Source: a virus (taxonomy: Duplodnaviria > Caudoviricetes). From it: DNA of 64,000 nucleotides. Below, one piece after another: positions 13,583 to 39,490 of the stretch. Positions within the stretch are counted from its first letter, which is position 1; every line of letters starts with the position of its first letter. The DNA lies in IMG/VR virus record IMGVR_UViG_3300042451_000960; one strand, 5' to 3'. Under the pieces are notes generated by a model. The model was not told where the DNA came from, ran no database searches, and was given only the letters and a program-made list of their open reading frames with translations. A program made the position numbers and the translations under genes.

Positions 13583-13597
13583 CAATTTCTAGTTTAA

Positions 13598-24600: not shown

Positions 24601-27600
24601 ATAAACTACCACTAATATTAACCGAACCTGTAAATTGCGAACCACTTGCTAATGATTCTACTTTAAATCCAAAATCAGGACTTACAGATGCTGTTACTGA
24701 ACCGGATTTTATTTCCGTTGTAACCAATGCATCTTCGGTAAGTGCTGAACGAGGTATATCTTTTAAGCCAGCACCACTACCACTAAAGAATGAACCTGTT
24801 GCTACTTGAACGATACCACTAACAATTACAGAACCTGTGAATTGAGAGCCACTACCCAAAGATTCCACTCTAAATCCAAATTCAGGTGTAACAGACGCTG
24901 TTACAGAACCCGTTGCTATTGATGTTAATTCGAATGATAATGCTGAACGAGGTATATCTTTTAAGCCAGCACCACTACCACTAAAGAATGAACCAGTTGC
25001 AGCTTGTATATTTCCGCTTACAATTAATGAACCTGTAAATTGCGAACCACTTGCTAATGATTCTACTTTAAATCCAAAATCAGGAGATACCGATGCAGTT
25101 GCACTACCACTAGCAATTCTAAATACTTCTTGAGAAAATGCTGATATAGGAATATTAAATAAATCTCTACCACTACCACTAAATGCTGATGCGGATACTA
25201 CGGTATTTACTTCTAAACCAAAATCAGGAGAAATAGATGCGGTTGCTGAACCACTTGCTATTCTATTAATTTCGAAAGCTAATGCAGATTGTGGTATATC
25301 AAATAATTGTGCACCACTACCACTAAATGAAGAACCAGATGCTACTCTAATATCACCTTTAACTTCCAAACTTCCAGTTACTTCTTGCTTATCGGTAGCG
25401 CTGTCACCAAATTTGTTTGAACCAGAAGAGTAAATTATTGAAGATGAAATATATTCTGCAATTAATTCAGTTGTTACTATTTTTCCATCAACATATAAAT
25501 CATTAGTTATACGTTGACTACCTTTAACCCCAACAGAACCAGTAACTTCCAATCCTTGCAATTTAGAAGAAGCAGATACATATAATCCACCCTCAATTGT
25601 TGCATTTGAATTAACATAAAATCCAACATTAGGACTTACGGATGCTGTTACTGAACCAGAAACTAATTTAGATGCTTGCTCAATTTGTAAATTGAATAAT
25701 CCACTACCATCACCTCTAAATAATGAAGCGGTCATTATACCAAGTGCTTTAACATCTTCTATTGTTGTAATAGAATTTGTTACAAACAAATATCCATTTA
25801 TTGTAGTAAATGTAGTTACTTCAAATCCTTTTTGCGGTGATATTGAAGCAGTTGCCGAGCCACTTGCTATTCTAAATGCTTCAGTTGCTAATGCTGATAA
25901 TGGAATATCAAATAATCCAGCACCACTACCACTAAATTTAGAAGCAGATACTAAAGTGTTTACAACTAAACCAGTTCCTAATATAAACGATGCTGAAAAA
26001 CTTGCACTTTCTAATAAGTAAGATTTCCCGGCTAATTCACTTAACTGAATATTATTGATATATCTACCATCGCCAATAAAGTAAGAACCACTTATTATAC
26101 TCACACTACCACTTACGTCTATTGAACCAGTAAATTCAGAACCACTAAGTGCTGAAATTACTTTAAATCCAACTTCAGGTGATACGGATGCTGTCACACT
26201 TCCACTAGCAATTCTTGGAACATCTCCAGTAAATGCTGAGAATGGAATATTAAATAATCCACCACCATCACCTCTAAACAATGATGCACTTAACGAACCA
26301 CTTATTTCAACTGAACCAGTAAATTCAGAACCACTCAATGCGGAATCAACTACAAATCCTTTATCCAATGAAACAGAAGCTGTAATACTTCCTGTTGCTA
26401 TTCTAAATGCCTCATTTGCTAATGCATTTAATGGTATATTAAATAACCCAGCACCACTACCAGAATAAAATACAGATGCCGATAATACTACATTTGTATT
26501 TATTTCCAATCCTCTTTCCGAAGATATAGAAGCTGTTGCGCTTCCACTTGCTATTAAATTAGAAACTAATGCATCCGGTGCTAATGCTGAACGAGGAATA
26601 TCTAATAATCCTCTACCACTACCACTAAAAAATGAACCAGTTGCTACCTGTATGTTTCCGCTTACAATTAACGAACCCGTAAATTGAGAACCGCTCTCTA
26701 ATGATTCTACTTTAAAACCAAAATCAGGAGAAACCGAAGCAGTTACACTACCACTTGATATTTTAGTGATTTCAAAAGCTAATGCAGATTGTGGAATATC
26801 AAATAATCCAATACCACTACCAGAGAAAAATCCAGCACCTTTTGGTATGAATATACTACCACTTACATCAATTGAACCTGTAAATTCCGAACCACTTGCT
26901 AAAGATTCAACTTTAAATCCAAATTCAGGTGATACAGATGCTGTTACACTTCCTGTTGAAATTTTAGTAATTTCAAAAGATAAAGCAGATTGTGGAATAT
27001 CAAATAAATCTCTACCACTACCACTAAAGAATGATGCTGATACTTTGTTTAATATAGATGAGCCTGTTACAATTAGAAAATCTCTTATCGTAACACCAGT
27101 ATTTACCAACAAACCAGTATTAGGTGCTATTGAAGCAGTTGCAGAACCACTTGCTATTCTATTAATTTCAAATGAAAGAGCCGCTTGTGGGATATTAAAC
27201 AATCCTTCACCACTACCAGAGAAAAATCCACTACCAGAAGGGATTGAAATACTACCACTTACATTTATTGAACCTGTAAATTGAGAACCACTTTCTAATG
27301 ATTCCACTCTAAATCCAAAGTTTGGTGATACAGATGCTGTTACACTACCACTAGCTATTCTAGGTGCTACTGTTGATGGTACATTTGTTAATTGTGAACC
27401 ATCTCCAACAAAAAATCTTGCAAATATCGATTCTGATACAAATAAGCTACCTGTTATTCTACTATCTACATTTACAACAAATCCGTTATCAGGTGCTATT
27501 GATGCTGTTGCTGAACCACTAAATATTTTTGTAGAATCTATGGATAAATTTGCTAATGAAATGTTTGTCAATCCACTACCGTCACCATAAAAGAATGAAC

Positions 27601-29305
27601 CACTTTCTACATAAAGGCTACCAGTTATTCTTACCGAACCAGTTATTTGAGAACCACTATCCTGTGATATTACTCTAAATCCAAAATCAGGAGAAACTGA
27701 AGCTGTAACTGAACCTGATTTAATTTCAGTTGATAATAAAGCATCTTCAGTAAGTGCTGAACGAGGTATGTTTCTTAAGTATGTACCTTCTCCATAGTAT
27801 GCGGAGCCAGATGCTAATTGTAATGAACCACTTTCAGCATTTACAAATAAGCTACCACTTATAGAAACACTTCCCGTAAATTGAGAACCACTATCCAAAG
27901 ATTGCACTCTAAATCCTTCATCAGGACTTACCGAAGCAGTTACACTACCACTTGCTATTCTAAATACTTCTTGAGTAAATGCAGCTAATGGTATATTAAA
28001 AAGACCTTCACCACTACCACTAAAAACGGATGCAGAAACAGATCCTGAAAAATTTGATGTTGCTGAAATTACTTCAAATCCTCTATTTGGGGAAACCGAA
28101 GCAGTTACACTACCACTTGCTATTCTAAATGCTTCTTGAGCTAATGCGTTTAATGGAATATCAAATAAACCAGCACCACTACCAGTAAACATAGATGCCG
28201 ATACAGTTGATTTGAATTCAGCTGAACCAGTTACTATTAAAAAATCTTTTATTGTTACACCCGTATTAACTAATAAACCCGTATTAGGTGCTATTGAAGC
28301 TGTTGCCGAACCACTAGCTATTCTAGGTGCTACTGTTGATGGTACATTTGTTAATTGAGAACCATCTCCACTAAAAGAACCAGTAAATGAACCGGATGCA
28401 GATGATACTGTTAAACTATCTATTGTGGCAGTTCTACTAATAATAGAACCAGATTCTACTATAACAGAACCAGTTGTTAAACGTAAACTACCTGTAATTT
28501 GTACTCCACCTAAAAAAGATGCACTTTGTGCATTAATTATAAGAAGGTCTCCAACTACAGAAGCGGTTACCGAACCACTTGCTAATATTGCAGATTCTAT
28601 TGCAGATTGTACATTTATTAAATCTCTACCATCACCAAAAAATGAACCTGTAAATGAACCTATCGCAGAAGATGCTGTAAGTTGATTAGTACTCAATCTA
28701 TCTCTTACTTCAACAGAACCAGTAAATTCTTGCTTATCCGTTTCTTCATCACCAAATTTATTAGAACCCGATGAATATATTACCGAAGATGATATATATG
28801 AAACTATTAATTGTTCAGCATATATTGAATTTTCAACAATTAAATCTTCAGTAATTCTAGCCGAACCAGTAACTGTTAAATTACCATTAATAGTTGTAAA
28901 TGTATTTACTGCTAATCCTTTATCAGGAGAAATAGATGCGGTTGCTGAACCACTTGCTATCTTTGGTGCTACAACTGCTGGTATATTTGTTAATAGAGAA
29001 CCATCTCCACTAAAAGAACCAGTGAAAGATCCTGTGAACAGGCCACTTAATAACGCACTTCCACTAAAAGATCCTGTAAAATTACCCTGAGCGGTGTCAA
29101 TTTTAATATCTTTAATAAATCGTCTATTACCATCACTATCTGATGCTAATATACCTACAGAACCACTATCAAACGAAGCTGGGAAATCAGGAACCCCAAG
29201 ATTGGGCTCGACTTGTGATAAATCCACAAATTCGTACCTATCTGCGGTAACATTTTTTGGACCTTTTAACCTGACCCTTCCTGATAATAGATTACTAATT
29301 GCCAT
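15686..29305 (-). CDS. Giant 4539-aa Ser/Gly-rich virion fibre protein
   Basis: About 35 RIASGS(A/V)TAS(I/V)SP repeats, one cupredoxin-like domain, ~1350 aa of Gly-Ser-Ser repeat, and a fibre-type C-terminal domain (TIDLATANNF...ITWP.S..W..G.APTLT..G.DI..F). Confidence 0.9.
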   Translation of the reverse strand: MAISNLLSGRVRLKGPKNVTADRYEFVDLSQVEPNLGVPDFPASFDSGSVGILASDSDGNRRFIKDIKIDTAQGNFTGSFSGSALLSGLFTGSFTGSFSGDGSLLTNIPAVVAPKIASGSATASISPDKGLAVNTFTTINGNLTVTGSARITEDLIVENSIYAEQLIVSYISSSVIYSSGSNKFGDEETDKQEFTGSVEVRDRLSTNQLTASSAIGSFTGSFFGDGRDLINVQSAIESAILASGSVTASVVGDLLIINAQSASFLGGVQITGSLRLTTGSVIVESGSIISRTATIDSLTVSSASGSFTGSFSGDGSQLTNVPSTVAPRIASGSATASIAPNTGLLVNTGVTIKDFLIVTGSAEFKSTVSASMFTGSGAGLFDIPLNALAQEAFRIASGSVTASVSPNRGFEVISATSNFSGSVSASVFSGSGEGLFNIPLAAFTQEVFRIASGSVTASVSPDEGFRVQSLDSGSQFTGSVSISGSLFVNAESGSLQLASGSAYYGEGTYLRNIPRSALTEDALLSTEIKSGSVTASVSPDFGFRVISQDSGSQITGSVRITGSLYVESGSFFYGDGSGLTNISLANLSIDSTKIFSGSATASIAPDNGFVVNVDSRITGSLFVSESIFARFFVGDGSQLTNVPSTVAPRIASGSVTASVSPNFGFRVESLESGSQFTGSINVSGSISIPSGSGFFSGSGEGLFNIPQAALSFEINRIASGSATASIAPNTGLLVNTGVTIRDFLIVTGSSILNKVSASFFSGSGRDLFDIPQSALSFEITKISTGSVTASVSPEFGFKVESLASGSEFTGSIDVSGSIFIPKGAGFFSGSGIGLFDIPQSALAFEITKISSGSVTASVSPDFGFKVESLESGSQFTGSLIVSGNIQVATGSFFSGSGRGLLDIPRSALAPDALVSNLIASGSATASISSERGLEINTNVVLSASVFYSGSGAGLFNIPLNALANEAFRIATGSITASVSLDKGFVVDSALSGSEFTGSVEISGSLSASLFRGDGGGLFNIPFSAFTGDVPRIASGSVTASVSPEVGFKVISALSGSEFTGSIDVSGSVSIISGSYFIGDGRYINNIQLSELAGKSYLLESASFSASFILGTGLVVNTLVSASKFSGSGAGLFDIPLSALATEAFRIASGSATASISPQKGFEVTTFTTINGYLFVTNSITTIEDVKALGIMTASLFRGDGSGLFNLQIEQASKLVSGSVTASVSPNVGFYVNSNATIEGGLYVSASSKLQGLEVTGSVGVKGSQRITNDLYVDGKIVTTELIAEYISSSIIYSSGSNKFGDSATDKQEVTGSLEVKGDIRVASGSSFSGSGAQLFDIPQSALAFEINRIASGSATASISPDFGLEVNTVVSASAFSGSGRDLFNIPISAFSQEVFRIASGSATASVSPDFGFKVESLASGSQFTGSLIVSGNIQAATGSFFSGSGAGLKDIPRSALSFELTSIATGSVTASVTPEFGFRVESLGSGSQFTGSVIVSGIVQVATGSFFSGSGAGLKDIPRSALTEDALVTTEIKSGSVTASVSPDFGFKVESLASGSQFTGSVNISGSLFVNPYSGSLQLATGSSYYGEGRYLREIPKSAISDLDTSLIFSGSATASISPAQGFRVNTFSTFLFPVSASMFTGSGAGLYDIPRSAFTGDSFRIASGSVTASVSPTEGFRVESSEFGSQITGSLFVSGAKGIELSSGSSFSGSGERLFDIPKTAIKDLDLSKIFSGSATASISPDKGLEVNVNIVLSSSVFYSGSGIGLFDIPQSALSGDAFRIASGSATASISPTKGFEVNTFSKITGSLLVSASNTLIYSGSALGEEFRTFNVSNNGASAYTFSGAATGSNPTLTLLRGATYTFNVNASGHPFWIKTIQVSGPTNSYNDGVINNGDDVGVITFTPPSGSPSTLYYICQFHSGMSGIMNLTDALVIDEGRLDFIGNTKITGSLSVSSYVSASMFTGSGKGLYDIPISALAQDVFRIASGSATASISPDKGLEVNTVVSASAFSGSGRDLRDIPFSNLTGDASRIASGSVTASVSPNFGFLVNADAQISGGLFVSQSSILTNLDVIGYVGITGSANIQNDLYVGGKIVTTELFAQYISSSIIYSSGSNKFGDSESDKQEISGSLFISGGYGGVVQLETGSYFSGSGKGLFEIPFSNLTGDAFRIASGSVTASVSPAYGFRVESIDSGSDFFGDVRIDGDLLVSGAQFQNNVDINGELRVTGSLIVSSSSTFRNIGPAQFSGSLFVTGGNVVVESGSSFIGDGTFITNIQFASSSIESLRLSSGSVTASVSPDGFIVNTPFTGGLIGSQFTGSVGVSGSLYVTNFIYGDGTFLTNVTAQAAPRIQSGSVTASVSPNFGFRVETLATGSQIGSQFTGSIDVSGSVTAQFLIGDGTFITNVTAQAAPRISSGSVTASVSPNFGFRVQTTATGSQIGSQFTGSIDVSGSVTAFAFIGDGSQITNVQAAAAPRIQSGSVTASVAPNQGFIVTSIESGSFFFGDVRVASGSVFSGSGAQLFDIPLSALEDLQLDRIQSGSGRAIQSPDTLEVNTPITAALYRGDGGGLFNIPANALQDLKLDRIESGSARAVISPTLLDINTNTRIHSGSLTVSGSIFVSGGNVIAQSGSIFIGDGSGLNNITIANLAFDAFLLKSGSFTASISPDKGFVVNTSASIWGNLYVGNTITASNTIKAHLFTGSFLGTYNFQGVGPTASAEYDILRYNTTQGYFIPQPESSLTETVAFSNVSDLTIVHNLDILYPMVQVYATGSEDQILPGTIKSIDKNTINIKFAGVTSGHVVIGSGGSLISGTINGDRVFGTVLSASHAIFADSAGNVAGFDSASLAFLSSSITNLNLADYVKNDQTSSMTVLSASYALSSSYALFAANAANVDTSLFVQASQTASMTVGTASFAVTSSYSYFAETSSYALFAQNASNVDTSNFVLNSQTASMTVGTASLAFTASYALYALNAEGVNTASFLQVNKDSTINANLTISGSLGVSGSIYWGTPYTSSASDLVVTWNPTTKKLEARNVQQAAGTSGVDGTSGSSGTAGTGGTSGSSGSSGSSGTSGSSGSSGSSGTSGSSGTDGSSGSSGSSGTSGSSGSSGTSGSGGTSGTSGTSGSSGSSGSSGTSGTSGSSGSAGTSGSSGSSGSSGSSGSSGSSGSSGSSGSSGSSGTTGSEGTSGSSGSSGSSGSSGSSGSSGSSGSSGSSGSSGSSGSSGSSGSSGSSGSSGSSGSSGSSGSSGSSGSSGSGGSSGSSGSSGSSGSSGSSGSSGSSGSSGSSGTSGTSGTSGSAGTSGTSGTSGSSGSSGSSGSSGSGGSSGSSGSSGSSGSTGTAGSGGTAGTSGSSGSSGSAGSAGTSGSSGSSGSSGSSGSSGSSGSSGSSGSSGSSGSSGSSGSSGSSGSSGSSGSSGSSGSSGSSGSGGSSGSSGSSGSSGSSGSSGSSGSSGSSGSSGSSGSSGTTGSNGSSGSSGSSGTSGSSGSDGSSGSSGSSGSSGSSGSSGSSGSSGSGGTSGTSGEDGTSGTAGTGGSSGSSGISGSSGSSGSSGSDGSSGSSGSDGLDGTSGSSGTTGSAGTSGSSGTSGTSGSDGSSGSSGSSGSSGTTGSAGTSGSSGSSGTSGSGGTSGSSGTSGSSGSSGSSGTTGSAGSSGTSGTSGSSGSDGSSGTSGSSGSSGTTGSDGTSGSSGSSGSGGTSGSGGTSGSSGSSGSSGSSGSAGTSGSSGSSGSGGTSGSGGSSGSSGQNGSSGSSGSSGTNGSHGTSGSSGSTGSDGTSGSNGTSGSSGQDGSSGSSGSSGTTGSAGTSGSSGSDGTSGSSGFSGSSGSSGSSGSSGSGGTTGSAGSSGTSGANGTFFGSSGTSGSSGSSGTDGSSGSSGTSGVNGTFFGSSGSSGSSGTSGISGSSGTSGSSGSSGSDGTSGVNGSNGTSGLNGTFFGSSGTSGNDGTSGSTGSDGSSGTAGTSGTSGLNGTFFGSSGTSGSSGSSGSSGSSGTTGTSGTSGLNGTFFGSSGSSGSSGTSGTSGQNGTDGTTGSGGSSGSGGTSGTSGSSGLNGTYFGSSGTSGLSGSSGSTGTDGSSGSSGTSGLNGTFFGSSGSSGTSGTSGSSGLNGTSGDDGSSGTAGTSGTSGLNGTFFGSSGTSGTSGESGTSGLTGSAGTTGSAGTSGSSGLNGTFFGSSGTSGTSGESGSAGTSGSSGSSGSSGLNGTFFGSSGSSGTSGESGTSGTSGQTGTAGTSGSSGLNGTFFGSSGSSGSSGTSGSGTSGTSGISGTSGTSGLNGTFFGSSGSSGSSGTSGAGTSGTSGVSGSSGTSGLNGTFFGSSGSSGSSGTSGAGTSGTSGSSGTSGLNGTFFGSSGSSGSSGTSGSSGINGTVGSDGSSGTSGSSGSSGFLGLTGTTDNGVLTYINSTGAGQVEANLTFDGTTLSVTGGINATTNITSTTYRETYSDLGTGGSVTIDLATANNFRRQFNGNATITLSNPPASNAFGFTLVSVNGGAYTITWPASINWANGVAPTLTTSGTDILVFYTYDAGSNYWGFLSAANMS
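16150..20190 (-). repeat. ~4-kb (Gly-Ser/Thr-Ser)n coding repeat with 14 NGT(F/Y)FG interruptions in its distal part
   Basis: Read directly from the translation. On the + strand, ccaaagaatgtaccatt-type units recur between ~16260 and ~17765. Confidence 0.95.
21290..28990 (-). repeat. About 35 imperfect ~55-100-aa repeats (RIASGS.TAS.SP...FTGS...F.G.G.GL..IP.SAL)
   Basis: Counted by eye in the 4539-aa translation. Confidence 0.9.
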
Positions 29306-29373: not shown

Positions 29374-30297
29374 TTATTCGTTAGCACTTTCAAGCAGTGA
29401 GAGGATTACAGTCAAATCAGTTGAGCCTGAAACTACAAATCCATACGTTTCTTCCAATACTAATTTACCGGCCACAACAGGCGATAAAGAATCTGCAGGC
29501 GGTACTATAACATTAGTTACCAATTGTATTGGATTTTGTGCAACAAGAGTTGGTTCTTCAATTGTTGCTTTTGTAACATTAATTAATTCATTTATTACAT
29601 ATAAAGATGATGAATAATTTTGACCAGATAAAGCATAATCTGAATTAAATGATTGAGTAAAAGTTGTTTGATATAATCTTTGTACTGAAGTTGAGCCTGT
29701 TACTGATTGGTTTTTTATAATTTGTCCAGCTAAAGTTTTTACATAATCTAAAGTAAATAAAGATGAAGAATATTCTTCGGGATATATTGATTTAATTATA
29801 TTTACACCATTTTTTGTATAAAAAGATTTTGTATTTTTTGTAGTTCTTATTATTGTTTTATTTTTCATATCATATGCAGATGCATCTGTTGCATCTAAAG
29901 CATATCCTTCAAATCTAGAAGATGTAAATGAAAATGGTGTTTCAGTTTCATTATTTAAGAAACTAATGTATGCTGCGGTTTCTTTTCTTATGAATTGTCT
30001 ATTCAAAGTTAATAAAGATGATGCACTTGCAAAACTACCAGAATAATTTGATAAAGAAACAGATGCACTTATAAAATTAGAGCCATTCCAAATATTTTCA
30101 AAATTTGGTACAGGTAATTCTGCATTTGATGTTACAAATATAGTTACAGGTTGATTTACTAAACTATTATTAGTTATTTGAGCAGACAACACAATAGTTG
30201 AAACTCCTTGCGGTGTTGTATAAATTTGGTCTTCTTCACCAGTCAGATTTGTTACTACTGACTGAAATCGGTTTAACGGTACAAATACATTTGCCAT
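29374..30297 (-). CDS. Fibre adaptor-like protein with an inserted degenerate helical repeat
   Basis: N- and C-termini match the 13598..13930 family (IYT.P...TIVL...ITN; KLVLEE...V.S...L.V.LS.LE). The middle resembles the helical repeat of the 3058-aa protein. Confidence 0.7.
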   Translation of the reverse strand: MANVFVPLNRFQSVVTNLTGEEDQIYTTPQGVSTIVLSAQITNNSLVNQPVTIFVTSNAELPVPNFENIWNGSNFISASVSLSNYSGSFASASSLLTLNRQFIRKETAAYISFLNNETETPFSFTSSRFEGYALDATDASAYDMKNKTIIRTTKNTKSFYTKNGVNIIKSIYPEEYSSSLFTLDYVKTLAGQIIKNQSVTGSTSVQRLYQTTFTQSFNSDYALSGQNYSSSLYVINELINVTKATIEEPTLVAQNPIQLVTNVIVPPADSLSPVVAGKLVLEETYGFVVSGSTDLTVILSLLESANE

Positions 30298-30313: not shown

Positions 30314-33300
30314 TTATATTTGAAGTGCCAATGAGAACGGAGTTACAAGTGAGAATAGAGATTTACTAAATGTTCTACCCACAAGAGTACCAGTTGCCTG
30401 ATTAATACTCAAACCTGTACCAATTCTAAAGTCACCATCTTGGTTACCAGAGGTAAAGAATATTCTACCACCACCCAATTCGGTAATTTCAAATGCCGGA
30501 TTAGCTGCACCACTACCACCTTGGTTTGGTGGAAGTGCTTTAAACGTAACACCACTACCATTGTAAGAGTAGTCAATACCAGTTGCCACAATCAACGAAC
30601 CAAATGGTTCTAATGATGCACCAGCTGCTATAAATTCAGCTCTTGTTCTAAGATAACGGTTAGTTTCTAACGTTTCCAGTCTTTGTTTAAATATAACCTC
30701 ACCAGCATTTCCAAATTGGCCGTTAAAATAAGATGATGCTGCCGCAACACTTCTTTCATTTCCACCATATAATAAGTCAGTTGCTACTGCATCTACAATC
30801 AGTCCGGTATCACGAGAACAACTAGCCTCATTATATATTAAATATGGAAATGCTCCATTTGTATAACTAATTGCTCTTTGTTTTAATTCATCTTTAGCCC
30901 CTCTTAGTCTTTCAACAGATTGTCTTCTTCGTTGTGTTGCGAATGTTAATTGTGTTTGAAGAACAATTTTTTCACTTACACCTTTTGCGTAATTAATTCC
31001 ATCTACAGTTTGATTCTTTTGACCAATTGTTCCATTATCAGTATAAGATGGTTTAATAGCTACTGATGGTATTTTGTAATAATAAGACCCTGCTTCAATA
31101 CTTCTTTCGTTTCCACCATATACTAAATCCGTTTTTATCGCATCAATGATAAATCCTATATCACGAGAACAACTTACTTCGTTATATTTTAATGTACTCC
31201 AAGAAGAACTTAAGAATGTAATTGTTTCTTTTTGTATAAAGTTTTTATTTAAACTTAATAATTCTCTTCCATTTAAATAAGATGAAGTTGGTGAAGTAAA
31301 TGTTGGATTAGTTATAATCTTTGTTGATAATCTTCCAGCATATTTTACACCAGTTATAGTTGGGTCTAATTGATTTGATTCGGATGGAACACCAGCTACC
31401 GTTGCTTTTGATGGGAAGTAATAATAATATAATCCCGCAGTCACACTTCTTTCTTTTCCACCATATAATAAATCAGTTGCTGCTGCATCTATTAGGTATC
31501 CAACATCACGAGAACAACTTGCTTCATTATAATAAACAGTACTCCAAGAAGAAGATACATAAGCAATAGTTTCTGCCTGTATTAATGGTTTATTTTTTCT
31601 TAATAAATCAAATGATGCAGATACTTCTAATGATGCAGTTTGGAATACAATATTTTGAATAATCTTTTGTGAAATTCTACTTGCGAAATCTATTGCTTCA
31701 TTTGTTTGTCTAAGTTGTGTAGTTGTTGCTTGAGATGGATATTTGTAATAAAACTCACCACTCTCAATACTTCTTTCATTACCACCATATAATAGGTCAG
31801 TTGCTACACCATCAACAATGTGTCCAACATCACGTCTACATTTTTCTTTATTGTAATCAAATGTACTCCAACTAGCAGTTAAATACTGCATTGTTTCTTC
31901 TTGAATAAATTCTCTATTTCTTCTAAGTAATTCTACCGATGCTGAAACTGATTGAGAAGCGGTTGTAAATTGTATATTTTGAATTACATTTACAGCTAAT
32001 CCTTTTGCAAAATCAATCGCAGATACAGTTTGCTCTAATTGAGAACCAGTTGCTGCTGATGCTGTTAGGAAATAAACAATACCAGCATTAGCACTACTTT
32101 CATTACCACTATAAAGTATATCAGTTGCTACTGCATCTATTATAAACCCAACATCTCTGCTACAACTTGCTTCGTTATATTGGAAACCAACCCAAGATGA
32201 TGAAACGTATGCTATTGTTTCAGCTTGTATGAATGGTTTGTTATTAATCAATAAATCATAAGTTGCTAAAACATTAGGGTCAGTTGATGCTGAACCATTT
32301 GGTATTACTTGCGGTGTTGATATTAAATTACTATTTATTATTTCACCTGTTAATCTTCTAGCATAATCAATTGCTTGCGTTGTTTCACTCTTTTGTTCAG
32401 ATGTAATTGCCAATGATGGATATAAATAATAGAACTCACCAGCTTTATTACTTCTTTCGTTTCCACCATATAATAGGTCAGTTGCTACCGCATCTACGAT
32501 ATATCCTACATCTCTCTTACACTTAGATTCAATATAATCCAAATCAGGCCACTTAGCGTTTACAAATGCTACAGTTTCTTCCTGTATAAATGTTTTATTA
32601 TTTTTAACTAAGTTGTAAGCGTATTGGTTATTAGAATCTGGTGATACGAATGATGAACCACTCACAATCATTCTTGATAATCCTTTAGCGTATCTTACAC
32701 CAGTTAATGTTGGTTCTAGTTGAGAATCGGTAGCTTGTGACGGATAATCATAATAATATCTACCAGCTACCAAACTTCTTTCATTACCACCATATAATAG
32801 GTCAGTTGCTACCGCATCAACAATGTATCCAATATCTCTCTTACAAGTTGTTTCATTGTAATCAAAACCTTGCCATGAAGAACTTAGGTATGCAATAGAT
32901 TCACTTTGTATGAAATGTTTATTTGCTCTTAATGCTGACCAAGACGATGATGCCGGTTGTAGTAGTGAAGATGATATATGTTGTAATACAATATTTTGTA
33001 CAACTTTTTCAGATATACCGCTTGCATATTTAATAGCTGTGATTGTTTGGTCTAATTGAGAACCTGTTGCTGCTGAAGCCGATTCGAAATAGTATTTACC
33101 ATTTACCAATGATGCTGAGTTACTTCCGTAAATCAAATCAAAAGCTGCTCCACTAATAATTAATCCCAAATCTCTTTCACACTTACTTTGGTCATAAACA
33201 AACGTACTCCAAGATGAACTCATATAAGAAATTGTTTCATCTATAATCATTTGCTTATTATCTAATAATAAGTTATAAGCTGATGTTACTTTTGAATTTG

Positions 33301-36300
33301 TATTTGCTGATGAGGTTGGTATGTATTCAATTGAACTCGTACCATTGTTTTGTAATAAATCAACAACTAACGCAAAAGATGATGAAATTAATTTAGCTTG
33401 CAATCTTTGTGCCCCACTTCCACTTATAATTTGCGGTGTGGTAGTTACTTTAATTGAAGCCGAAGTATTTGATATTAATGTTGGAATTTTTGTAATACCA
33501 TCTTCAATTATATCCAATACAATATTATATAAATTAACAATTCTATTTACTTCATTAGTACTTCCACTACCCAATTGGTTATAAACTGCTGATGTTGTTT
33601 TTATAGAACTACTTGCGTTTGCTACTAAAGTTTGTAAAGATGCTGTTCCATTATTAACAATATTAATTATATTTGCATAAGATGAACTTACATTTGAAAC
33701 TTGTGTGTTATATGTTCCACTTCCCAAACTTTGAGTTATAGAAGATATATGCCACAATGTTGGTGGGATTAATTCAAATCCATAATTAAAGTTGCTTACC
33801 AATGAATCAGGTAATGATGCACTTCCGTTATAAATTATATCTCTTATTAAATTAAATGAAGATGTTGTTTTACCAACTTCTAAATTACTAGCAGATATTG
33901 ATGAAGATACAATTATCTCTGATGTTACTTTGATAGCCGCATTTGTATTTGTTACTTTTGTTGGTATTACATCTAACCCACCTTCAATTATTTGAGTAAC
34001 CAAAGAGAATGATGAACTAACATTTGATATTTGTGATTGTGAAGCACTATACGAAGATGTATATTGTGCAACATTTCCAACTTTAATATTATTTGTTGTA
34101 TTTGTTTCAAAAGTTACGGTATCCAAAACATCGTTAGTAACAACACGCTTAGCTACTTCTTTTACATAGTTTATAGCATCAATAGTTTCTTTCTTTTGTG
34201 CAGATGTTGTTGCTAATGATGGGAATTTATAATAATACAATCCAGAAGCTGCGCTTCTTTCGTTTCCACCATAGAGAATATCAGTACCAACCGAATCTAA
34301 AATAAATCCAACATCACGAGAACAACTTGCTTCATTATAAAGTAAATAAGGATAGAATGCTCTTATGTATTCAATAGTTTCGGTTCTTATTAAACTTCTA
34401 TTTTGTTTTAATAAGTTATTTACATTTTTAGCTTCATTTGATGCGGTAACAAATACATCACCCAAAACAATTTTTTGTGATAACCCACTTCCATAATGTA
34501 TTCCAGTTATAGTTGGGTCTAATTGATTTGTTGCAGATGGTACTCCACCAATTGTTGCTGATGATGGGTATATATAGTAAAACTTACCCGCAGTTATACT
34601 TCTTTCATTACCGCCATAAACTAAGTCAGTTCTTACAGCATCTATAATATATTTAACATCTCTCTTACACTTTGCTTCATTGTAATATACCGTACTCCAA
34701 GAAGATGATACATAAGCAACAACCTCATTTGCTATAAAGTTTTTATTCTTTTCTAATAAGAACGAAGCGTTTCTTTTATTAATACTTGCTGTTTCAAAAA
34801 TAATATTTTTTACAACTTTTTGAGATACTTTACTTGCGTAATTTATACCATCTAAAGTTTGTATTAATTGTGAACCGGTTGCGGCAGAAGGATATAAGAA
34901 ATAATACTTTCCAGCAGTTATTGCTCTTTCGTTACCACCATAAATTAAATCGGTTCTTGCTGCATCAATTATATGCCCTATATCTCTCTTACAAGTTTGG
35001 TCATTATATTCAAACTCTCCCCAAGAAGATGATAGATATGCAATAGATTCACTTTGCACAAAGTGTCTATTTTCAAATAATAAATTAGATGCGTTTAATA
35101 CATCAAATGTTGGTAAACTTAATTGAGTATTTTTAATTACTTTTTGTGCTAATTTACTTGCAAACTTAATACCATCAATTGTTTGATTTAATTGAGAACC
35201 AGTTGCTGCAGATGGGTATTCTAAATAGAATCTACCATTTACTAACGATGCTGATAATGAGCCGAACAATAAATCTTCCGCAGCACCACTAACAATTAAT
35301 CCAACATCTCTTTTACATTTTTCTTGGTCATAACTAAACCCATACCAAGATGCTGATAAATAAGCTATTGTTTCATCTTTGATGAAGTTGATATTTTGTT
35401 TTAATAAATTATATGCATAATAAACATTAATATCATTTGAAGCTACTACATAAGATGATGTTGGTAATGATAATGAATTAGTATATTGATTTACGCCAGA
35501 AATAATATCACATACTAAAGATATAGATTGGGAAACCAATAAAGCTTCTACATTTGAACCTGAGAATGATGATGAAATATATTGTGGTGTTGAAGTTACT
35601 TTTACGTTTCCTGCTGAATTTAGGACCATAGTTGGTACTACACCCAATCCACCTTCAATTATTTTTGTTACAATTGAGAATGAAGAACTTACTAAACTAG
35701 ATTGAGTATCAGTTGCACCACTTCCACTATATTGAGTGGCATTTGTAACTTTAATACTTGCTGATGTGTTAAGAACAATAGATGGTAAAGAGCCCGTTCC
35801 ATTTGATATTATTCTTGATACTAATGCAAATGATGAACTTATAGCAGTTGCTTCAACTGAAGTTGCTACTGAACCTGTGTATTGTCCGTTATTCGTAACT
35901 TTTATTGATGAACTATAAGAAGAACTTATAGCTGGATAGTATGAACTCCCACTATTAATTATTGTTGTTACTATACCAAACTTGCTTTCTAAACTTGAAG
36001 TTAAATTAGCACTTGATGTAGTTGATGTTATTTGAGTTCCACCACTTATATTAATTGGATTTGTTAAGCTCCAATTTTGATTATTGTGTTGAGCTAATAC
36101 TGAATTTACATTATTAGGTCCTCTTTTTATAACACCTTCAATAATAGAAAAAGAACTACTAATTGAATTTTGTTCAGTTATTGAACCAGAGAATGATGAT
36201 GAATAATGTATTTGATTTGTTATTTTTATTCCCTTTTCAACATTTGTTATTATACGTGGAGTATCTAATAAAATATTTTGAGCTATATAATCACCAATTA

Positions 36301-39300
36301 TTTTTGCATATTTTATACCACCAATTGTTTCTCTTTTTTGTATTGATGTTGCAACAGATGGATAATCATAATAATATCTACCAGCTGTAATACTTCTTTC
36401 ATTACCACCATATAAAAGGTCAGTTGCTACCGCATCTACAATATATCCAACATCCCTACGGCACTTACTTTCATTATATGTTAATTGTGGATATGCAACA
36501 TTAATAAATTGAATTGTTTCGTTTTGAATTAATTCTTTATTTTGCTTTAATAAATTGTATGCAGCTTTACTTGATGTACTTGGTAATACTAAAGTATTTT
36601 TCTTTATTATATTATCAACTAAACCATAAGCATATTTTATAGCAGTTGTTGTTTGGTCTAATTGATAACCAGTTGCTTGTGATGGATATAAATAATAAAA
36701 TGTTCCCGCCTCAATACTTCTTTCGTTTCCACCATATAAAAGGTCAGTTGTCACCGCATCTAAAATATATCCCACATCTCTACTACAACTTGCTTCATTA
36801 TAATCAAAGTTTGACCAAGATGAGGAAAGGAATGTTATTACTTCATCTTTAATAAATTGCTTACTACCCGTAATCGCTTCAACAGAATCTAATACAGCTA
36901 TGGAAGGTTCTACAAATGTTTTATTTTTTAATAAATTTTCCGATAATCTTGCTGCGTATTTTACACCATCTAATGTTTGTGATTTTTGAGTATTTGTTGC
37001 TTGAGATGGTATTTCATAATAAAATCTTCCAGCAGTTATACTTCTATCGTTACCACCATATAATAAATCTAAAGCTACGGCATCAATAATATATCCAACG
37101 TCTCTTTTACAAGTTTCTTGATTATAATAAAACTCACTCCAAGATGAACTAATATAATTTATTACTTCATTTTGTATAAAAGATTTACTTCCCGTTAAAA
37201 TTTCATATGCATTTATTATATCGGTATTTTCGCTTGGTGTTAAACTTCCCGATATTGTTTCTGGATATGTTAGAGTATTTTCAATTAAATATCTTGGTGT
37301 TGTTGATGAATTTACAACACTAAATGCTCCACCTAAAGTATCATTGGTGGATGCCACATAATACAAATCATTTGGAGCATCATATGGAACTGTAAATGTA
37401 ATAGTTCCAACACTATCTCCATTATTTATTACTCCTTTATTATAATCGTATCTACTATCAATACCATCAACCTTTGCTGTTCTTATCCAAAACGGATAAT
37501 CAATACCACCAACTGCCGCCGATGCACTTATGTAAAATTTATAAGTTAAACCTCTAAATAATTTTATTGTAGGATTTTCACCAATAGTGCTATCTTCCGA
37601 ATCAATAAATTTATAAGAAGAACTATTAGTATTTGTAACAGTAAATTCTTGTTGATGATTATTTGGTATAGTTTCTATATTACTACCAGTACCTCTTGCT
37701 ATTATATTATATATTGTACTAAAACTAGCACTTACTTCGTTTATCGTAGATAGTGAAGAAGAAATACCAGTACTAAATGGTGCTGCTGTTCTGTAAATGT
37801 ATGAATTAGTATTTGTTACTAAAGTTGGTATTTGTGTTAAACCTGTTTTTAATATAGAAATTACCGTACTAAAAGATGATGATACACTTCCAGTTATTGC
37901 GTTACTTGCTACTAAAGTTGGATACTCAGGATTATTATCACTTATTTTAATCTTATACTCATTTGAAGAAGTATAGATGTAAGAACCAGTACCATCACTA
38001 AAAATACTTAATAAAGCCGCATAAGATGCACTTATATGATTTAAATTTTCTAAAGATGCAGATTGTGATGATGTAATTTGGGTTGCTCCTAAAATATTGT
38101 ACGGAGATGTAAACCCATATCCTTTTATTGATGATTTTGCCAAAAGTGTAGGATAATTATCTACACCATTTTGAACAATTTCGCTCACCAAATTATAATC
38201 AGCAACAACTTCAGCTGCTACATCAGCAGATGCTGCATTACTTCCACTTAAATAATATTGCGTAGCTACAGAAGTAGGTACAACTCTAATTCCTTCTACC
38301 GTATTAAGTGTTGTTACATCTGGTAATCCATCTAATCCTTTATTTAATACATCTACAACAACACTCCATCCCTGTCTTACTTTATCTCTACCTTCGATAA
38401 AACCACCACTACCACTAATTAAACGAGAACCAGATGCGTACATACCATATAAACCAAACGAAATGTTTGAGTTGTTTAGGGTAGCATGTCCACCATTGTT
38501 TACTCTAATTGCATAATATGAGAAGTTATTAAAGAAAGATACCAACTGAATGAATCCTCTACCATTTACCAAACACCCTACACCGTTTGGAGAAATCTGC
38601 GTATAAGCATCCAATACCATTGAAGCCAACGGAGAATCAGAATTTATCACATCACCATTAACATACAAACCACCACCACCCGGCGGAATATCTTCGTAAA
38701 GTTCGGTAAATGAATTTTCTTGGTTAGAAATCTGCGAGCAGTTTTGAATGTATGGTGAAGTTGTAATAAATGCACCAGGTTGGAAAGCAAATCCAAACCC
38801 CTTTTCAGGGTTTATTTGATCTGGATATAATCTCAATCCACCAACAGTTACCTCAGCCACATAACATCCAGAGTTTACCCAAAAAAGGTCTTCTGTGGGA
38901 TTCTTAGCATTAATTTTCGTAATACGCAAACCAGCACCCCATATTGTAGTATTCTTAGGAAGTATCACAGGATTGTCCTCTAAATACGTTCCCGCTTGAA
39001 CTTTAATTACATATCCATTATAGATAGAACCAGTATCAAAACCATATCTACCATCGTAGCCAGGTTGCGATAATGCAGCCGCTCTTTTAATTGTACGAAG
39101 TGGATATTGAATACTTCTACCATCATTATTATCATCACCATCGGTAGAAGAAACATAAAGTGTAGGTAGGTTGGCACCAAAATCTTTTGCAAGGATACCA
39201 GCATATCTTTCGGTATCAATTGCTAATTGCGATTTGGAAGCAGTTACATTTAAAGTATTATCACCAACTATTGAAAAATTACCATCAATAGTCATTGAAC

Positions 39301-39490
39301 CTGTTACAAATACTGAACCTGTAATTTCTCCTTTATCATTCAACGAATCGCCTAAAAAGAAATCATTATCTATTTGTATAGAACCACTAGAAAAAATACT
39401 TCCACCAACAATTAAATCTTGTCTAACCGTCAGCGAACCACTTATATCCTGTTGTTCTTCAATCTGTTTACGAGGTATCAGTCTTGCCAT
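30314..39490 (-). CDS. 3058-aa tailspike-like protein: pectin-lyase-like beta-helix ends enclosing 15 phycobiliprotein/globin-like repeats
   Basis: N-terminal LYVS..GDD.NDG...RTIKRA and SPYIQNC...SMV.DAYTQ...QLVS.F...SN.SFG.YG motifs. C-terminal GGRIFFTS..QDGDFRIG...INQ.TG...F.KSL...VTP motif. 15 copies of C.RD.G.I.D....DL.(Y/F)GG. Confidence 0.85.
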   Translation of the reverse strand: MARLIPRKQIEEQQDISGSLTVRQDLIVGGSIFSSGSIQIDNDFFLGDSLNDKGEITGSVFVTGSMTIDGNFSIVGDNTLNVTASKSQLAIDTERYAGILAKDFGANLPTLYVSSTDGDDNNDGRSIQYPLRTIKRAAALSQPGYDGRYGFDTGSIYNGYVIKVQAGTYLEDNPVILPKNTTIWGAGLRITKINAKNPTEDLFWVNSGCYVAEVTVGGLRLYPDQINPEKGFGFAFQPGAFITTSPYIQNCSQISNQENSFTELYEDIPPGGGGLYVNGDVINSDSPLASMVLDAYTQISPNGVGCLVNGRGFIQLVSFFNNFSYYAIRVNNGGHATLNNSNISFGLYGMYASGSRLISGSGGFIEGRDKVRQGWSVVVDVLNKGLDGLPDVTTLNTVEGIRVVPTSVATQYYLSGSNAASADVAAEVVADYNLVSEIVQNGVDNYPTLLAKSSIKGYGFTSPYNILGATQITSSQSASLENLNHISASYAALLSIFSDGTGSYIYTSSNEYKIKISDNNPEYPTLVASNAITGSVSSSFSTVISILKTGLTQIPTLVTNTNSYIYRTAAPFSTGISSSLSTINEVSASFSTIYNIIARGTGSNIETIPNNHQQEFTVTNTNSSSYKFIDSEDSTIGENPTIKLFRGLTYKFYISASAAVGGIDYPFWIRTAKVDGIDSRYDYNKGVINNGDSVGTITFTVPYDAPNDLYYVASTNDTLGGAFSVVNSSTTPRYLIENTLTYPETISGSLTPSENTDIINAYEILTGSKSFIQNEVINYISSSWSEFYYNQETCKRDVGYIIDAVALDLLYGGNDRSITAGRFYYEIPSQATNTQKSQTLDGVKYAARLSENLLKNKTFVEPSIAVLDSVEAITGSKQFIKDEVITFLSSSWSNFDYNEASCSRDVGYILDAVTTDLLYGGNERSIEAGTFYYLYPSQATGYQLDQTTTAIKYAYGLVDNIIKKNTLVLPSTSSKAAYNLLKQNKELIQNETIQFINVAYPQLTYNESKCRRDVGYIVDAVATDLLYGGNERSITAGRYYYDYPSVATSIQKRETIGGIKYAKIIGDYIAQNILLDTPRIITNVEKGIKITNQIHYSSSFSGSITEQNSISSSFSIIEGVIKRGPNNVNSVLAQHNNQNWSLTNPINISGGTQITSTTSSANLTSSLESKFGIVTTIINSGSSYYPAISSSYSSSIKVTNNGQYTGSVATSVEATAISSSFALVSRIISNGTGSLPSIVLNTSASIKVTNATQYSGSGATDTQSSLVSSSFSIVTKIIEGGLGVVPTMVLNSAGNVKVTSTPQYISSSFSGSNVEALLVSQSISLVCDIISGVNQYTNSLSLPTSSYVVASNDINVYYAYNLLKQNINFIKDETIAYLSASWYGFSYDQEKCKRDVGLIVSGAAEDLLFGSLSASLVNGRFYLEYPSAATGSQLNQTIDGIKFASKLAQKVIKNTQLSLPTFDVLNASNLLFENRHFVQSESIAYLSSSWGEFEYNDQTCKRDIGHIIDAARTDLIYGGNERAITAGKYYFLYPSAATGSQLIQTLDGINYASKVSQKVVKNIIFETASINKRNASFLLEKNKNFIANEVVAYVSSSWSTVYYNEAKCKRDVKYIIDAVRTDLVYGGNERSITAGKFYYIYPSSATIGGVPSATNQLDPTITGIHYGSGLSQKIVLGDVFVTASNEAKNVNNLLKQNRSLIRTETIEYIRAFYPYLLYNEASCSRDVGFILDSVGTDILYGGNERSAASGLYYYKFPSLATTSAQKKETIDAINYVKEVAKRVVTNDVLDTVTFETNTTNNIKVGNVAQYTSSYSASQSQISNVSSSFSLVTQIIEGGLDVIPTKVTNTNAAIKVTSEIIVSSSISASNLEVGKTTSSFNLIRDIIYNGSASLPDSLVSNFNYGFELIPPTLWHISSITQSLGSGTYNTQVSNVSSSYANIINIVNNGTASLQTLVANASSSIKTTSAVYNQLGSGSTNEVNRIVNLYNIVLDIIEDGITKIPTLISNTSASIKVTTTPQIISGSGAQRLQAKLISSSFALVVDLLQNNGTSSIEYIPTSSANTNSKVTSAYNLLLDNKQMIIDETISYMSSSWSTFVYDQSKCERDLGLIISGAAFDLIYGSNSASLVNGKYYFESASAATGSQLDQTITAIKYASGISEKVVQNIVLQHISSSLLQPASSSWSALRANKHFIQSESIAYLSSSWQGFDYNETTCKRDIGYIVDAVATDLLYGGNERSLVAGRYYYDYPSQATDSQLEPTLTGVRYAKGLSRMIVSGSSFVSPDSNNQYAYNLVKNNKTFIQEETVAFVNAKWPDLDYIESKCKRDVGYIVDAVATDLLYGGNERSNKAGEFYYLYPSLAITSEQKSETTQAIDYARRLTGEIINSNLISTPQVIPNGSASTDPNVLATYDLLINNKPFIQAETIAYVSSSWVGFQYNEASCSRDVGFIIDAVATDILYSGNESSANAGIVYFLTASAATGSQLEQTVSAIDFAKGLAVNVIQNIQFTTASQSVSASVELLRRNREFIQEETMQYLTASWSTFDYNKEKCRRDVGHIVDGVATDLLYGGNERSIESGEFYYKYPSQATTTQLRQTNEAIDFASRISQKIIQNIVFQTASLEVSASFDLLRKNKPLIQAETIAYVSSSWSTVYYNEASCSRDVGYLIDAAATDLLYGGKERSVTAGLYYYYFPSKATVAGVPSESNQLDPTITGVKYAGRLSTKIITNPTFTSPTSSYLNGRELLSLNKNFIQKETITFLSSSWSTLKYNEVSCSRDIGFIIDAIKTDLVYGGNERSIEAGSYYYKIPSVAIKPSYTDNGTIGQKNQTVDGINYAKGVSEKIVLQTQLTFATQRRRQSVERLRGAKDELKQRAISYTNGAFPYLIYNEASCSRDTGLIVDAVATDLLYGGNERSVAAASSYFNGQFGNAGEVIFKQRLETLETNRYLRTRAEFIAAGASLEPFGSLIVATGIDYSYNGSGVTFKALPPNQGGSGAANPAFEITELGGGRIFFTSGNQDGDFRIGTGLSINQATGTLVGRTFSKSLFSLVTPFSLALQI
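30620..37211 (-). repeat. 15 ~110-aa helical repeats with invariant C-x-R-D, in clusters of 3, 4 and 8 separated by Ser-rich spacer repeats
   Basis: Motif instances in order: TCKRD, SCSRD, KCRRD, KCKRD, TCKRD, KCKRD, SCSRD, KCERD, TCKRD, KCKRD, SCSRD, KCRRD, SCSRD, SCSRD, SCSRD. Confidence 0.92.

Follow-up and report, generated by a model that had tools for sequence, protein, structure and literature searches.

Why should a phage virion protein repeat, many times over, a motif that resembles the bilin-attachment site of the phycobiliproteins? The question is raised by a 64,000-nucleotide stretch of the virus record IMGVR_UViG_3300042451_000960 (called the window in what follows), which is bases 39599-103598, read on the minus strand, of a 136,291-bp IMG/VR viral contig (G000) from an uncultured aquatic phage, and more precisely by one of its genes, which encodes a fibre-like protein of 3058 amino acids (aa). 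The repeated domain of this protein is a distant homologue of the bilin-binding globins, that is, of the phycobiliproteins and the BBAGs, and has kept their Cys-x-Arg-Asp (C-x-R-D) site; arrayed in tandem on what is probably a virion protein, it adds a new branch to a known superfamily. The best overall explanation for the array, which we hold with moderate confidence, is that bilin-binding globins are carried in rows on a fibre of the virion. The literature gave no account of phycobiliprotein-like domains in phage structural proteins, and the repeat has apparently never been annotated as biliprotein-like.

Fifteen repeats in a giant fibre-like protein

The original prediction, made by a model that saw only the letters of the window and their open reading frames (ORFs), had described 15 helical repeats that each carry C-x-R-D, and a recount of the motif in the 3058-aa protein gave exactly that number. 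The gene and its three blocks of repeats are placed as follows.

30314..39490, minus strand: gene for the giant fibre-like virion protein (P0001), 3058 aa, a single open frame with PHROG matches, in the structural module
36263..37237, minus strand: phycobiliprotein-like repeats 1-3 (aa 752-1076; profile domains), motif Cys at aa 794, 902 and 1010
34124..35443, minus strand: phycobiliprotein-like repeats 4-7 (aa 1350-1789; profile domains), motif Cys at aa 1392, 1500, 1608 and 1723
30629..33307, minus strand: phycobiliprotein-like repeats 8-15 (aa 2062-2954; profile domains, repeats 9-10 modelled), motif Cys at aa 2104, 2216, 2324, 2443, 2551, 2659, 2774 and 2891

Each repeat is about 108 aa long, and the motifs are spaced 108-119 aa apart within the blocks of 3, 4 and 8 copies. 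Searched with a profile of its own repeats, the protein yields 15 domains with E values from 7e-30 to 8.5e-51, and the 15-copy alignment, with a mean column identity of 52%, is invariant at Y38, C43, R45, D46, D57 and Y73. This pattern is far beyond chance. The repeat region as a whole covers aa 752-2954, or window positions 30629-37237, against which the span first proposed (30620-37211) is essentially right; the claim that only four other Cys occur in the protein also held on recounting, these being at aa 209, 251, 306 and 1327.

The repeat is by no means confined to this protein. An exhaustive profile search turned up 1,303 cluster representatives that contain it, of which 947 reach E<=1e-10; almost all are giant proteins, with up to 36 copies each. 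Conservation was measured over 1,607 copies from the best 150 of the 1,303 representatives, and here the Cys is kept in 95% of copies, with the Arg at 95% and the Asp at 98%; a lack of the Cys in homologous repeats elsewhere would have argued against the original prediction. The repeat also has strongly conserved residues of its own, namely D57 (99%), Y73 (98%) and T88 (91%).

A bilin-binding globin fold

Two tandem repeats (9-10, aa 2172-2394) were modelled with AlphaFold2 from a 35-row alignment of tandem pairs, giving an all-helical structure with a predicted local distance difference test score (pLDDT) of 83.6 and a predicted template modelling score (pTM) of 0.75. When superposed with VIA-align, one repeat (model residues 1-111) falls on phycobiliprotein residues ~29-148, with Z scores of 12-12.8 and root-mean-square deviations (rmsd) of 1.7-2.3 Å over 104-108 of the 111 residues, and 204 chains reach Z>=8. 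A scan of 48,161 representative chains, made independently of Foldseek, ranked the bilin-binding globins first: allophycocyanin (Z 12.1), the bilin domain of photocobilin (PDB 8j2y; 11.9), phycobilisome core and phycoerythrin chains (11.8 and 11.5) and the bilin domain of ApcE (11.2). Next came a colicin, at an rmsd of 3.7 Å, followed by haem globin sensors at Z 8-9 and ~4 Å. Because the biliproteins come ahead of the haem globins, the domain has specifically the biliprotein flavour of the globin fold, and the globin-type fold proposed from the sequence can be narrowed to the phycobiliprotein type. The repeat consists of helices A/B-E-F-G of a phycobiliprotein, that is, the core of helices A/B, E, F', F and G around the bilin site; it covers residues ~29-148 only, with the X-Y hairpin and helix H absent and the next repeat starting directly. 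The cyanophage A4 pre-ejectosome chain (PDB 9k3a_A) also matches the model weakly (Z 6.8), which is probably a generic helical resemblance.

Could the likeness be an accident, in which an unrelated four-helix unit came to contain C-x-R-D by convergence and AlphaFold2 was drawn to phycobiliprotein geometry? AlphaFold2 may be biased by memorised phycobiliprotein structures, and helical models often reach Z ~13 through chance. Every Foldseek match to the PDB had E >0.2, yet phycobiliproteins dominated the list and VIA-align was needed to resolve them; the two-domain model gave only noise against the AlphaFold DB clusters, and an ESM Atlas feature search gave no usable match. With sequence profiles, the sole PDB matches were five phycocyanin alpha chains, aligned at K-C-A-R-D with E values of 0.7-1.1, which are not significant alone. 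Against an accident stands a comparison that is free of structure. HHalign, run with a 351-copy repeat profile against nine phycobiliproteins from cyanobacterial plasmids, gave a probability of 89.9% and P 1.7e-6 over 90 of 107 columns, whereas the column-reversed control gave 0.2% and P 0.27. Repeat positions 6-95 lie on biliprotein positions 37-135, with Cys43 on Cys82/84 and Tyr38 on Tyr74; in both the hidden Markov model (HMM) match and HHalign, C43-x-R45-D46 aligns with the C-x-R-D of CpcA/CpcB, and the register is the same as in the structural superposition. The superposition itself reaches an rmsd of 1.7 Å over 105 of 111 residues, and the top ~200 chains are all biliproteins. An artefact of this kind is very improbable, and both the fold and the homology to bilin-binding globins can be taken as highly probable.

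The relationship is a distant one. The PF00502 model is matched neither by the entire protein (E<=1) nor by any of the 15 single repeats (E<=10), which makes the repeat a distant relative and not a phycobiliprotein proper; of the match to phycobiliproteins that had been proposed, the homology and the placing of the Cys on the bilin-attachment Cys therefore stood, and recognition by the family model itself did not. The repeat shares with the PF00502 proteins (CpcA/B, ApcA/B, CpeA/B and the ApcE bilin domain) the core helices, the C-x-R-D on helix E and the equivalent of Tyr74. It differs from them in its low identity (~14%), in its own invariant D57, Y73 and T88, and in occurring as 15-36 tandem copies within giant phage structural proteins, including those of phages that lack psbA and probably infect Bacteroidota. 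Since it has neither the X-Y hairpin nor helix H, it would form no alpha-beta monomer or trimer ring.

A parallel is also offered by bilin-binding globins outside photosynthesis. The BBAGs are phycobiliprotein paralogues of heterotrophs that often have CXRD and are tied to genes for haem oxygenase and ferredoxin-dependent bilin reductase (Rockwell et al. 2023, PMC10151467). In BBAG-1 and BBAG-3, which have CXRD, the bilin is attached without a lyase, and BBAG-2 and the photocobilins bind biliverdin without CXRD (PMC10151467). The repeat may resemble this group of BBAGs, photoglobins and photocobilins in a genomic tie to the same two genes, which its own incomplete contig lacks and complete relatives carry, as described below, and the photocobilin bilin domain is its second-best unbiased structural match. 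The BBAGs, on the other hand, are single-domain soluble cellular proteins encoded beside the biosynthesis genes, whereas the repeat forms an array in a virion protein whose gene lies more than 100 kb from them.

The conserved Cys, Arg and Asp

Does the domain still bind a chromophore? It is possible, if doubtful, that a captured bilin-binding globin was multiplied as a rigid helical spacer of the fibre with no chromophore at all, its Cys, Arg and Asp being retained for a new use, either in a polar network in the interior or where repeats touch one another, and the bilin-synthesis cassettes discussed below serving iron release or host physiology, for example. A spacer of this kind is consistent with the loss of the X-Y hairpin and helix H and with the unmatched PF00502 model, and the residues at the top of the conservation list (D57, Y73 and T88) are not phycobiliprotein features.

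The behaviour of the motif across homologues argues in the other direction. A buried small residue should drift to Ala, Ser or Val, yet the Cys is retained to the extent given above among copies with 30-50% identity, and motif Cys make up 1,481 of the 2,819 Cys in 151 proteins. All three of C, R and D are kept in 1,469 of 1,574 copies, and when one is lost the others tend to go with it: the Arg or the Asp is absent from 33 of 1,502 Cys-bearing copies vs 43 of 72 Cys-less copies (odds ratio 66, Fisher p 8e-44, uncorrected for relatedness among copies). The structural D57, by contrast, is retained in 71 of the 72 Cys-less copies. Where the Cys has been replaced (82 cases), the new residue is Phe, Tyr or Trp in 39, and such bulky aromatics are to be expected if the side chain faces a cavity and not a tight core. 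From these sequence patterns, the triad looks like one functional unit. Disulfide pairing of the motif Cys was also considered and set aside; with one Cys per domain, the odd block sizes (a block of 3, a total of 15) make paired disulfides unlikely.

A conserved pocket might of course hold something other than a bilin made by the phage; haem or porphyrin, biliverdin from the host, a metal and a ligand on the host surface are candidates, the Cys then acting as nucleophile or ligand. Haem is bound within the globin superfamily, the next-best folds are those of haem globin sensors, and the binding of biliverdin without CXRD by BBAG-2 and the photocobilins is a further precedent. The C-x-R-D triad is nevertheless specifically a bilin site (PMC10151467), the repeat has no conserved proximal His, and the rmsd is ~4 Å to haem globins vs 1.7-2.3 Å to biliproteins, so that a different ligand appears improbable. 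That the repeats actually bind bilin is a proposition on which we are evenly divided.

Bilin synthesis genes in repeat-bearing phages

If the repeats bind bilins, a supply of bilin might be encoded by the phages that carry them. The genomes were scored for haem oxygenase (PF01126), ferredoxin-dependent bilin reductase (PF05996), CpeT and psbA. In a first sample of 17 repeat-holding IMG/VR records, an adjacent haem oxygenase and bilin reductase pair was found in 6, including all 4 that are complete, and a CpeT lyase in 3 of the 17. A second sample of 25 more large records, drawn with two divergent 4-row repeat profiles, had the adjacent pair in 3 of the 3 records that are >=90% complete and in one at 51%. 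Combining the two, the adjacent pair occurs in 7/7 repeat-bearing records that are >=90% complete, a result that the notion of a chromophore-free spacer does not lead one to expect; psbA is absent from all 42 repeat-bearing records. The association is not that of a single clade. TerL identity to the window phage is 74-90% for G002-G004, 30-32% for G040, G043 and G050 (the 345-400 kb group) and undetectable for G001, and the cassette-carrying genomes thus belong to three or more deep lineages. In the three nearest complete outgroups, immuto, Mel-JY01 and LR756508, the repeat, the haem oxygenase and the reductase are all missing.

The original prediction had called for a search of the rest of the genome for haem oxygenase, bilin reductase and lyase genes, and the outcome was mixed: nothing was found on the phage's own incomplete contig, and all seven complete relatives carry the pair. 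The closest of these relatives, G002, is a complete 274-kb record whose terminase and capsid are 90% and 89% identical to those of the window phage and whose cassette lies ~145 kb from its terminase. Given this and the incompleteness of the 136-kb contig, the cassette of the window phage itself is inferred to lie off the contig.

The cassettes have several features of their own. At loci L085 (G004:C1:242482-246033) and L088 (in G005), the ORF for the haem oxygenase and that for the bilin reductase share 13-68 bases, and the phage haem oxygenases are short, at 171-187 aa. In one lineage the cassette is flanked by thymidylate synthase and GroES/GroEL, and in another by S-adenosylmethionine (SAM) decarboxylase and a PAP2-like protein; neither a lyase nor a ferredoxin was found among its neighbours. 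The same adjacent pair is known from the phage cassettes of haem oxygenase with PcyX, PcyA or PebS (PMC11480375; Sullivan et al. 2010, PMC3037559). Those cassettes are known as auxiliary metabolic genes of "enigmatic" purpose, with no phage-encoded acceptor proposed. For phages whose hosts are not photosynthetic, a 2024 study of phage tetrapyrrole genes describes the cassettes as "still enigmatic" and brings up BBAGs only speculatively (PMC11480375), and for cyanophages pcyA and pebS "remain a mystery" and cpeT is "unresolved" (Sullivan et al., PMC3037559).

Several observations weigh against bilin binding by the repeats, and some of them favour the spacer. The own contig, as far as it goes, lacks haem oxygenase, bilin reductase, CpeT and any PF00502 match, and two repeat-bearing records that are 71% complete lack the cassette. 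The repeat is present in just one of 18 further records with a reductase, so that the reverse association, in which every phage with a reductase would have the repeat, was rejected. G025 (IMGVR_UViG_3300032315_001715, 453 kb, complete), G027, G020, the pelagiphage Mosig (MT647606.1, complete) and P-SSM2 all bear the reductase and are repeat-negative even with a broader profile. The cassette must then have, or also have, another purpose, and if G025 or Mosig encodes a bilin acceptor, it would differ from this repeat. A cassette that is simply common in large aquatic myoviruses would also give the pattern seen, and the repeat-free comparison for its frequency consists of the three outgroups only. 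Lyases of the S/U or E/F type were not found, with CpeS-type lyase missing from the 11 records searched. At the level of the site, the propionate-binding Arg77/78 of phycobiliproteins fall in an alignment gap. The one-way link between repeat and cassette is nonetheless the pattern expected if the repeat needs a supply of bilin while bilins have further uses.

Cyanophages and adsorption in the light

Among isolates, the repeat occurs in 82 records, of which 81 are Synechococcus or Prochlorococcus phages and one is a marine single-amplified-genome (SAG) virus. The proteins concerned are annotated as short tail fibre, baseplate wedge gp7 or virion structural protein. P-HM2 gp7 (a 4458-aa ORF) and a 3792-aa ORF of S-PM2 retain K-C-x-R-D...GGN, and these T4-like cyanomyovirus giants, which also include a 3340-aa ORF of S-PM2, have the same repeat as the protein of the window. 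They differ in having 2-5 detected copies per protein, in being more diverged, in coming from another phage family and in having hosts that make bilins themselves. Repeat matches number 5 in P-HM2 and 9 in S-PM2, the repeat is also present in P-HM1, and it is absent from P-SSM2 and P-SSP7.

This distribution can be set beside the adsorption phenotypes reported by Liu et al. (PMC6628666), in which P-HM1 and P-HM2 show no adsorption in the dark, P-SSM2 and P-SSP7 adsorb in the dark, and the light-dependent adsorption of S-PM2 is independent of host photosynthesis. Presence of the repeat matches light-dependent adsorption in 4/4 phages, which is an anecdote and not a test. S-PM2 has the repeats and no reductase of its own, as would be accommodated if the pocket were kept for another ligand. 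Its cpeT (S-PM2p217) lies ~1.4 kb upstream of the 3792-aa repeat ORF (L136, NC_006820.1 163102-175389). The RefSeq S-PM2 record places ~16 tRNAs inside this open frame, which looks like a coordinate error.

On the role of a pigment, our preferred guess is light sensing that gates adsorption: bilin-loaded arrays would alter their conformation or stiffness in light and so control attachment to the host. We rate this photoreceptor reading as rather unlikely. If true, it would explain both the haem oxygenase, PcyX/PebS/PcyA and CpeT genes in phages of non-photosynthetic hosts and of the phycobilisome-less Prochlorococcus, and the light-dependent adsorption of cyanomyoviruses that is independent of host photosynthesis.

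Domain organization and probable virion role

The repeat blocks are set between conserved terminal domains and are separated by low-complexity segments, as listed here.

38291..39490, minus strand: conserved domain at the N-terminus (aa 1-400), its core (aa ~110-355) modelled as a right-handed beta-helix; from homologues, AlphaFold2 and Foldseek
37238..38290, minus strand: Ser/Thr-rich linker (aa 401-751), 26% Ser+Thr, with short "SSSFS..I...G...P" motifs
35444..36262, minus strand: spacer 1 (aa 1077-1349), 33% Ser+Thr, with ~45-50 aa "IKVT...SSSFS..II..G" repeats (motifs at aa 1097, 1111, 1218, 1268 and 1306)
33308..34123, minus strand: spacer 2 (aa 1790-2061), with short Ser-rich repeats as in spacer 1
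30317..30628, minus strand: C-terminal conserved domain (aa 2955-3058), from homologues, phrog_3442 and phrog_17885

A role associated with the fibre or baseplate is quite probable for this protein. Its PHROG matches are 4527 "short tail fiber" (E 4e-148), 5342 "tail fiber" and virion structural protein families; the gene sits in the structural module; the repeat recurs in the baseplate wedge protein gp7 of P-HM2; and the N-terminal domain appears to be a beta-helix. The AlphaFold2 model of aa 1-400 has a pLDDT of 71 overall and 80-94 in the core, and its Foldseek matches are right-handed beta-helices throughout (best E 1.1e-3), among them the phage 7-7-1 tail fibre, CBA120 TSP1, phi29 gp12, Depo32 and pectin enzymes. 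The earlier suggestion of a tailspike thus finds a counterpart in a tailspike-like N-terminal domain. The right-handed parallel beta-helix is shared with those tailspikes and fibres; the points of difference are that the matches are weak (E >= 1e-3) and that in several homologues the repeat array is inserted in the domain. In P0092, P0066, P0071, P0024, P0020 and P0021 the beta-helix domain is split, its second half coming 1,000-3,000 residues after the first, so that the entire globin-repeat array is an insertion within the domain.

Both ends of the protein are shared among the homologues, with an N-terminal core of ~250 aa common to 107 of 150 and the final ~95 aa forming the extreme C-terminus in 129 of 150. 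The C-terminal domain matches the C-terminal ends of phrog_3442 and of phrog_17885 "tail fiber protein". The three linkers and spacers (26-33% Ser/Thr) share the repeat "IKVT..QY...SSSFS.V..II..G....P..V.N", for which no family match was found. A phmmer search of the PDB gave nothing significant for the N-terminal 750 aa or the C-terminal domain, Pfam scans of the entire protein and of the individual repeats returned no relevant family, and no isolate phage was matched by the gene in a megablast search.

Genome context and host

The contig has a CheckV completeness of 67%, is probably about half a genome, and carries its genes in a single direction throughout. The genes for terminase, portal, major head protein and head-tail adaptor lie upstream of the giant repeat gene, and the following ORFs lie downstream of it.

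29374..30297, minus strand: 307-aa ORF (P0002) with a sixteenth, degenerate repeat at aa 89-199 (window 29701-30033)
15686-29305, minus strand: giant collagen-repeat ORF, 4539 aa, with collagen triple-helix tracts
2-13585, minus strand: giant collagen-repeat ORF, at least 4528 aa, with collagen triple-helix tracts

The repeat in P0002 is recognized by hmmsearch at E 1.5e-5, and its C-x-R-D has become S-S-R-F, with the Cys and the Asp lost. Record G019, which has the same repeat protein, has a 292-aa ORF directly after the repeat gene with a weak repeat match (E 2.2e-8). The product of such an ORF could form the tip of the fibre, or act as a chaperone or in assembly. The collagen tracts of the two giant ORFs match Pfam with E values of 1.5e-135 and 2.8e-60, and neither protein matches the phycobiliprotein-like repeat profile. 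It is to the collagen tracts that the window, otherwise at ~32% GC, owes its stretches of 0.46-0.55 GC at 10-12 kb and at 16-20 kb. A CHAP-domain protein is encoded at contig positions 10445-11632.

The terminase and capsid place the phage among distant T4-like myoviruses; its nearest relatives by identity of these two proteins are the Flavobacterium phage immuto (57% and 49%) and "Microcystis phage Mel-JY01" (54% and 53%). Outside the window, the contig also carries an outer-membrane beta-barrel gene, OMP_b-brl_3 (E 3.8e-27; G000:C1:1333-2412, locus L001), for which all 80 of the cellular homologues retained in the search are from Bacteroidota, at 27-44% identity. The host is likely to belong to the Bacteroidota. 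A cyanobacterial host was set aside, as the relatives lack psbA, the nearest isolate is a Flavobacterium phage and the homologues of the outer-membrane gene are from Bacteroidota only; a point on the other side is that the "Microcystis phage" is nearly as close as immuto. The non-cyanobacterial host that had been suggested from the promoters is in this way borne out as probable by the terminase and capsid relatives and the Bacteroidota-type outer-membrane gene.

Implications

The explanation that we favour, bilin-binding globin arrays on a virion fibre, would work as follows. A giant fibre or baseplate protein would carry its 3+4+8 globin-type domains between a beta-helix N-terminus and a conserved C-terminal domain, and each domain would bind a linear tetrapyrrole through a thioether at the Cys of C-x-R-D, probably without a dedicated lyase, as in the BBAGs. 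Where the host is not photosynthetic, the phage's haem oxygenase and ferredoxin-dependent bilin reductase would supply the bilin in the course of infection; in cyanophages the source would be the host, the phage or the two together. A fibre of this kind would bear tens to hundreds of chromophores. Whether a bilin is bound, which one, and what the pigment does, we can only infer. Of the conditions that the original prediction named as refuting it, those that could be checked did not go against it.

Two questions have stood open for 15-20 years, namely the purpose of the phage genes ho1, pebS, pcyA, pcyX and cpeT (PMC3037559, PMC11480375) and the adsorption of some cyanophages only in light, independently of host photosynthesis (PMC6628666). 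What is new here is that the repeat is linked to an adjacent haem oxygenase and bilin reductase in complete relatives, and to baseplate and fibre proteins of S-PM2 and P-HM2; a candidate phage-encoded virion acceptor with an intact bilin site makes both questions cheaply testable. If bilins are not bound, the repeat would still be a clear case of a globin of the light-harvesting or BBAG type turned into a structural repeat. If they are, this would be the first pigmented phage virion, perhaps a light-gated one, for which there is no precedent. The repeats would then also be a source of small, lyase-independent fluorescent tags, and would constitute a new lineage of bilin-binding globins, with more than 1,300 sequence clusters, that bears on the origin of the phycobiliproteins.

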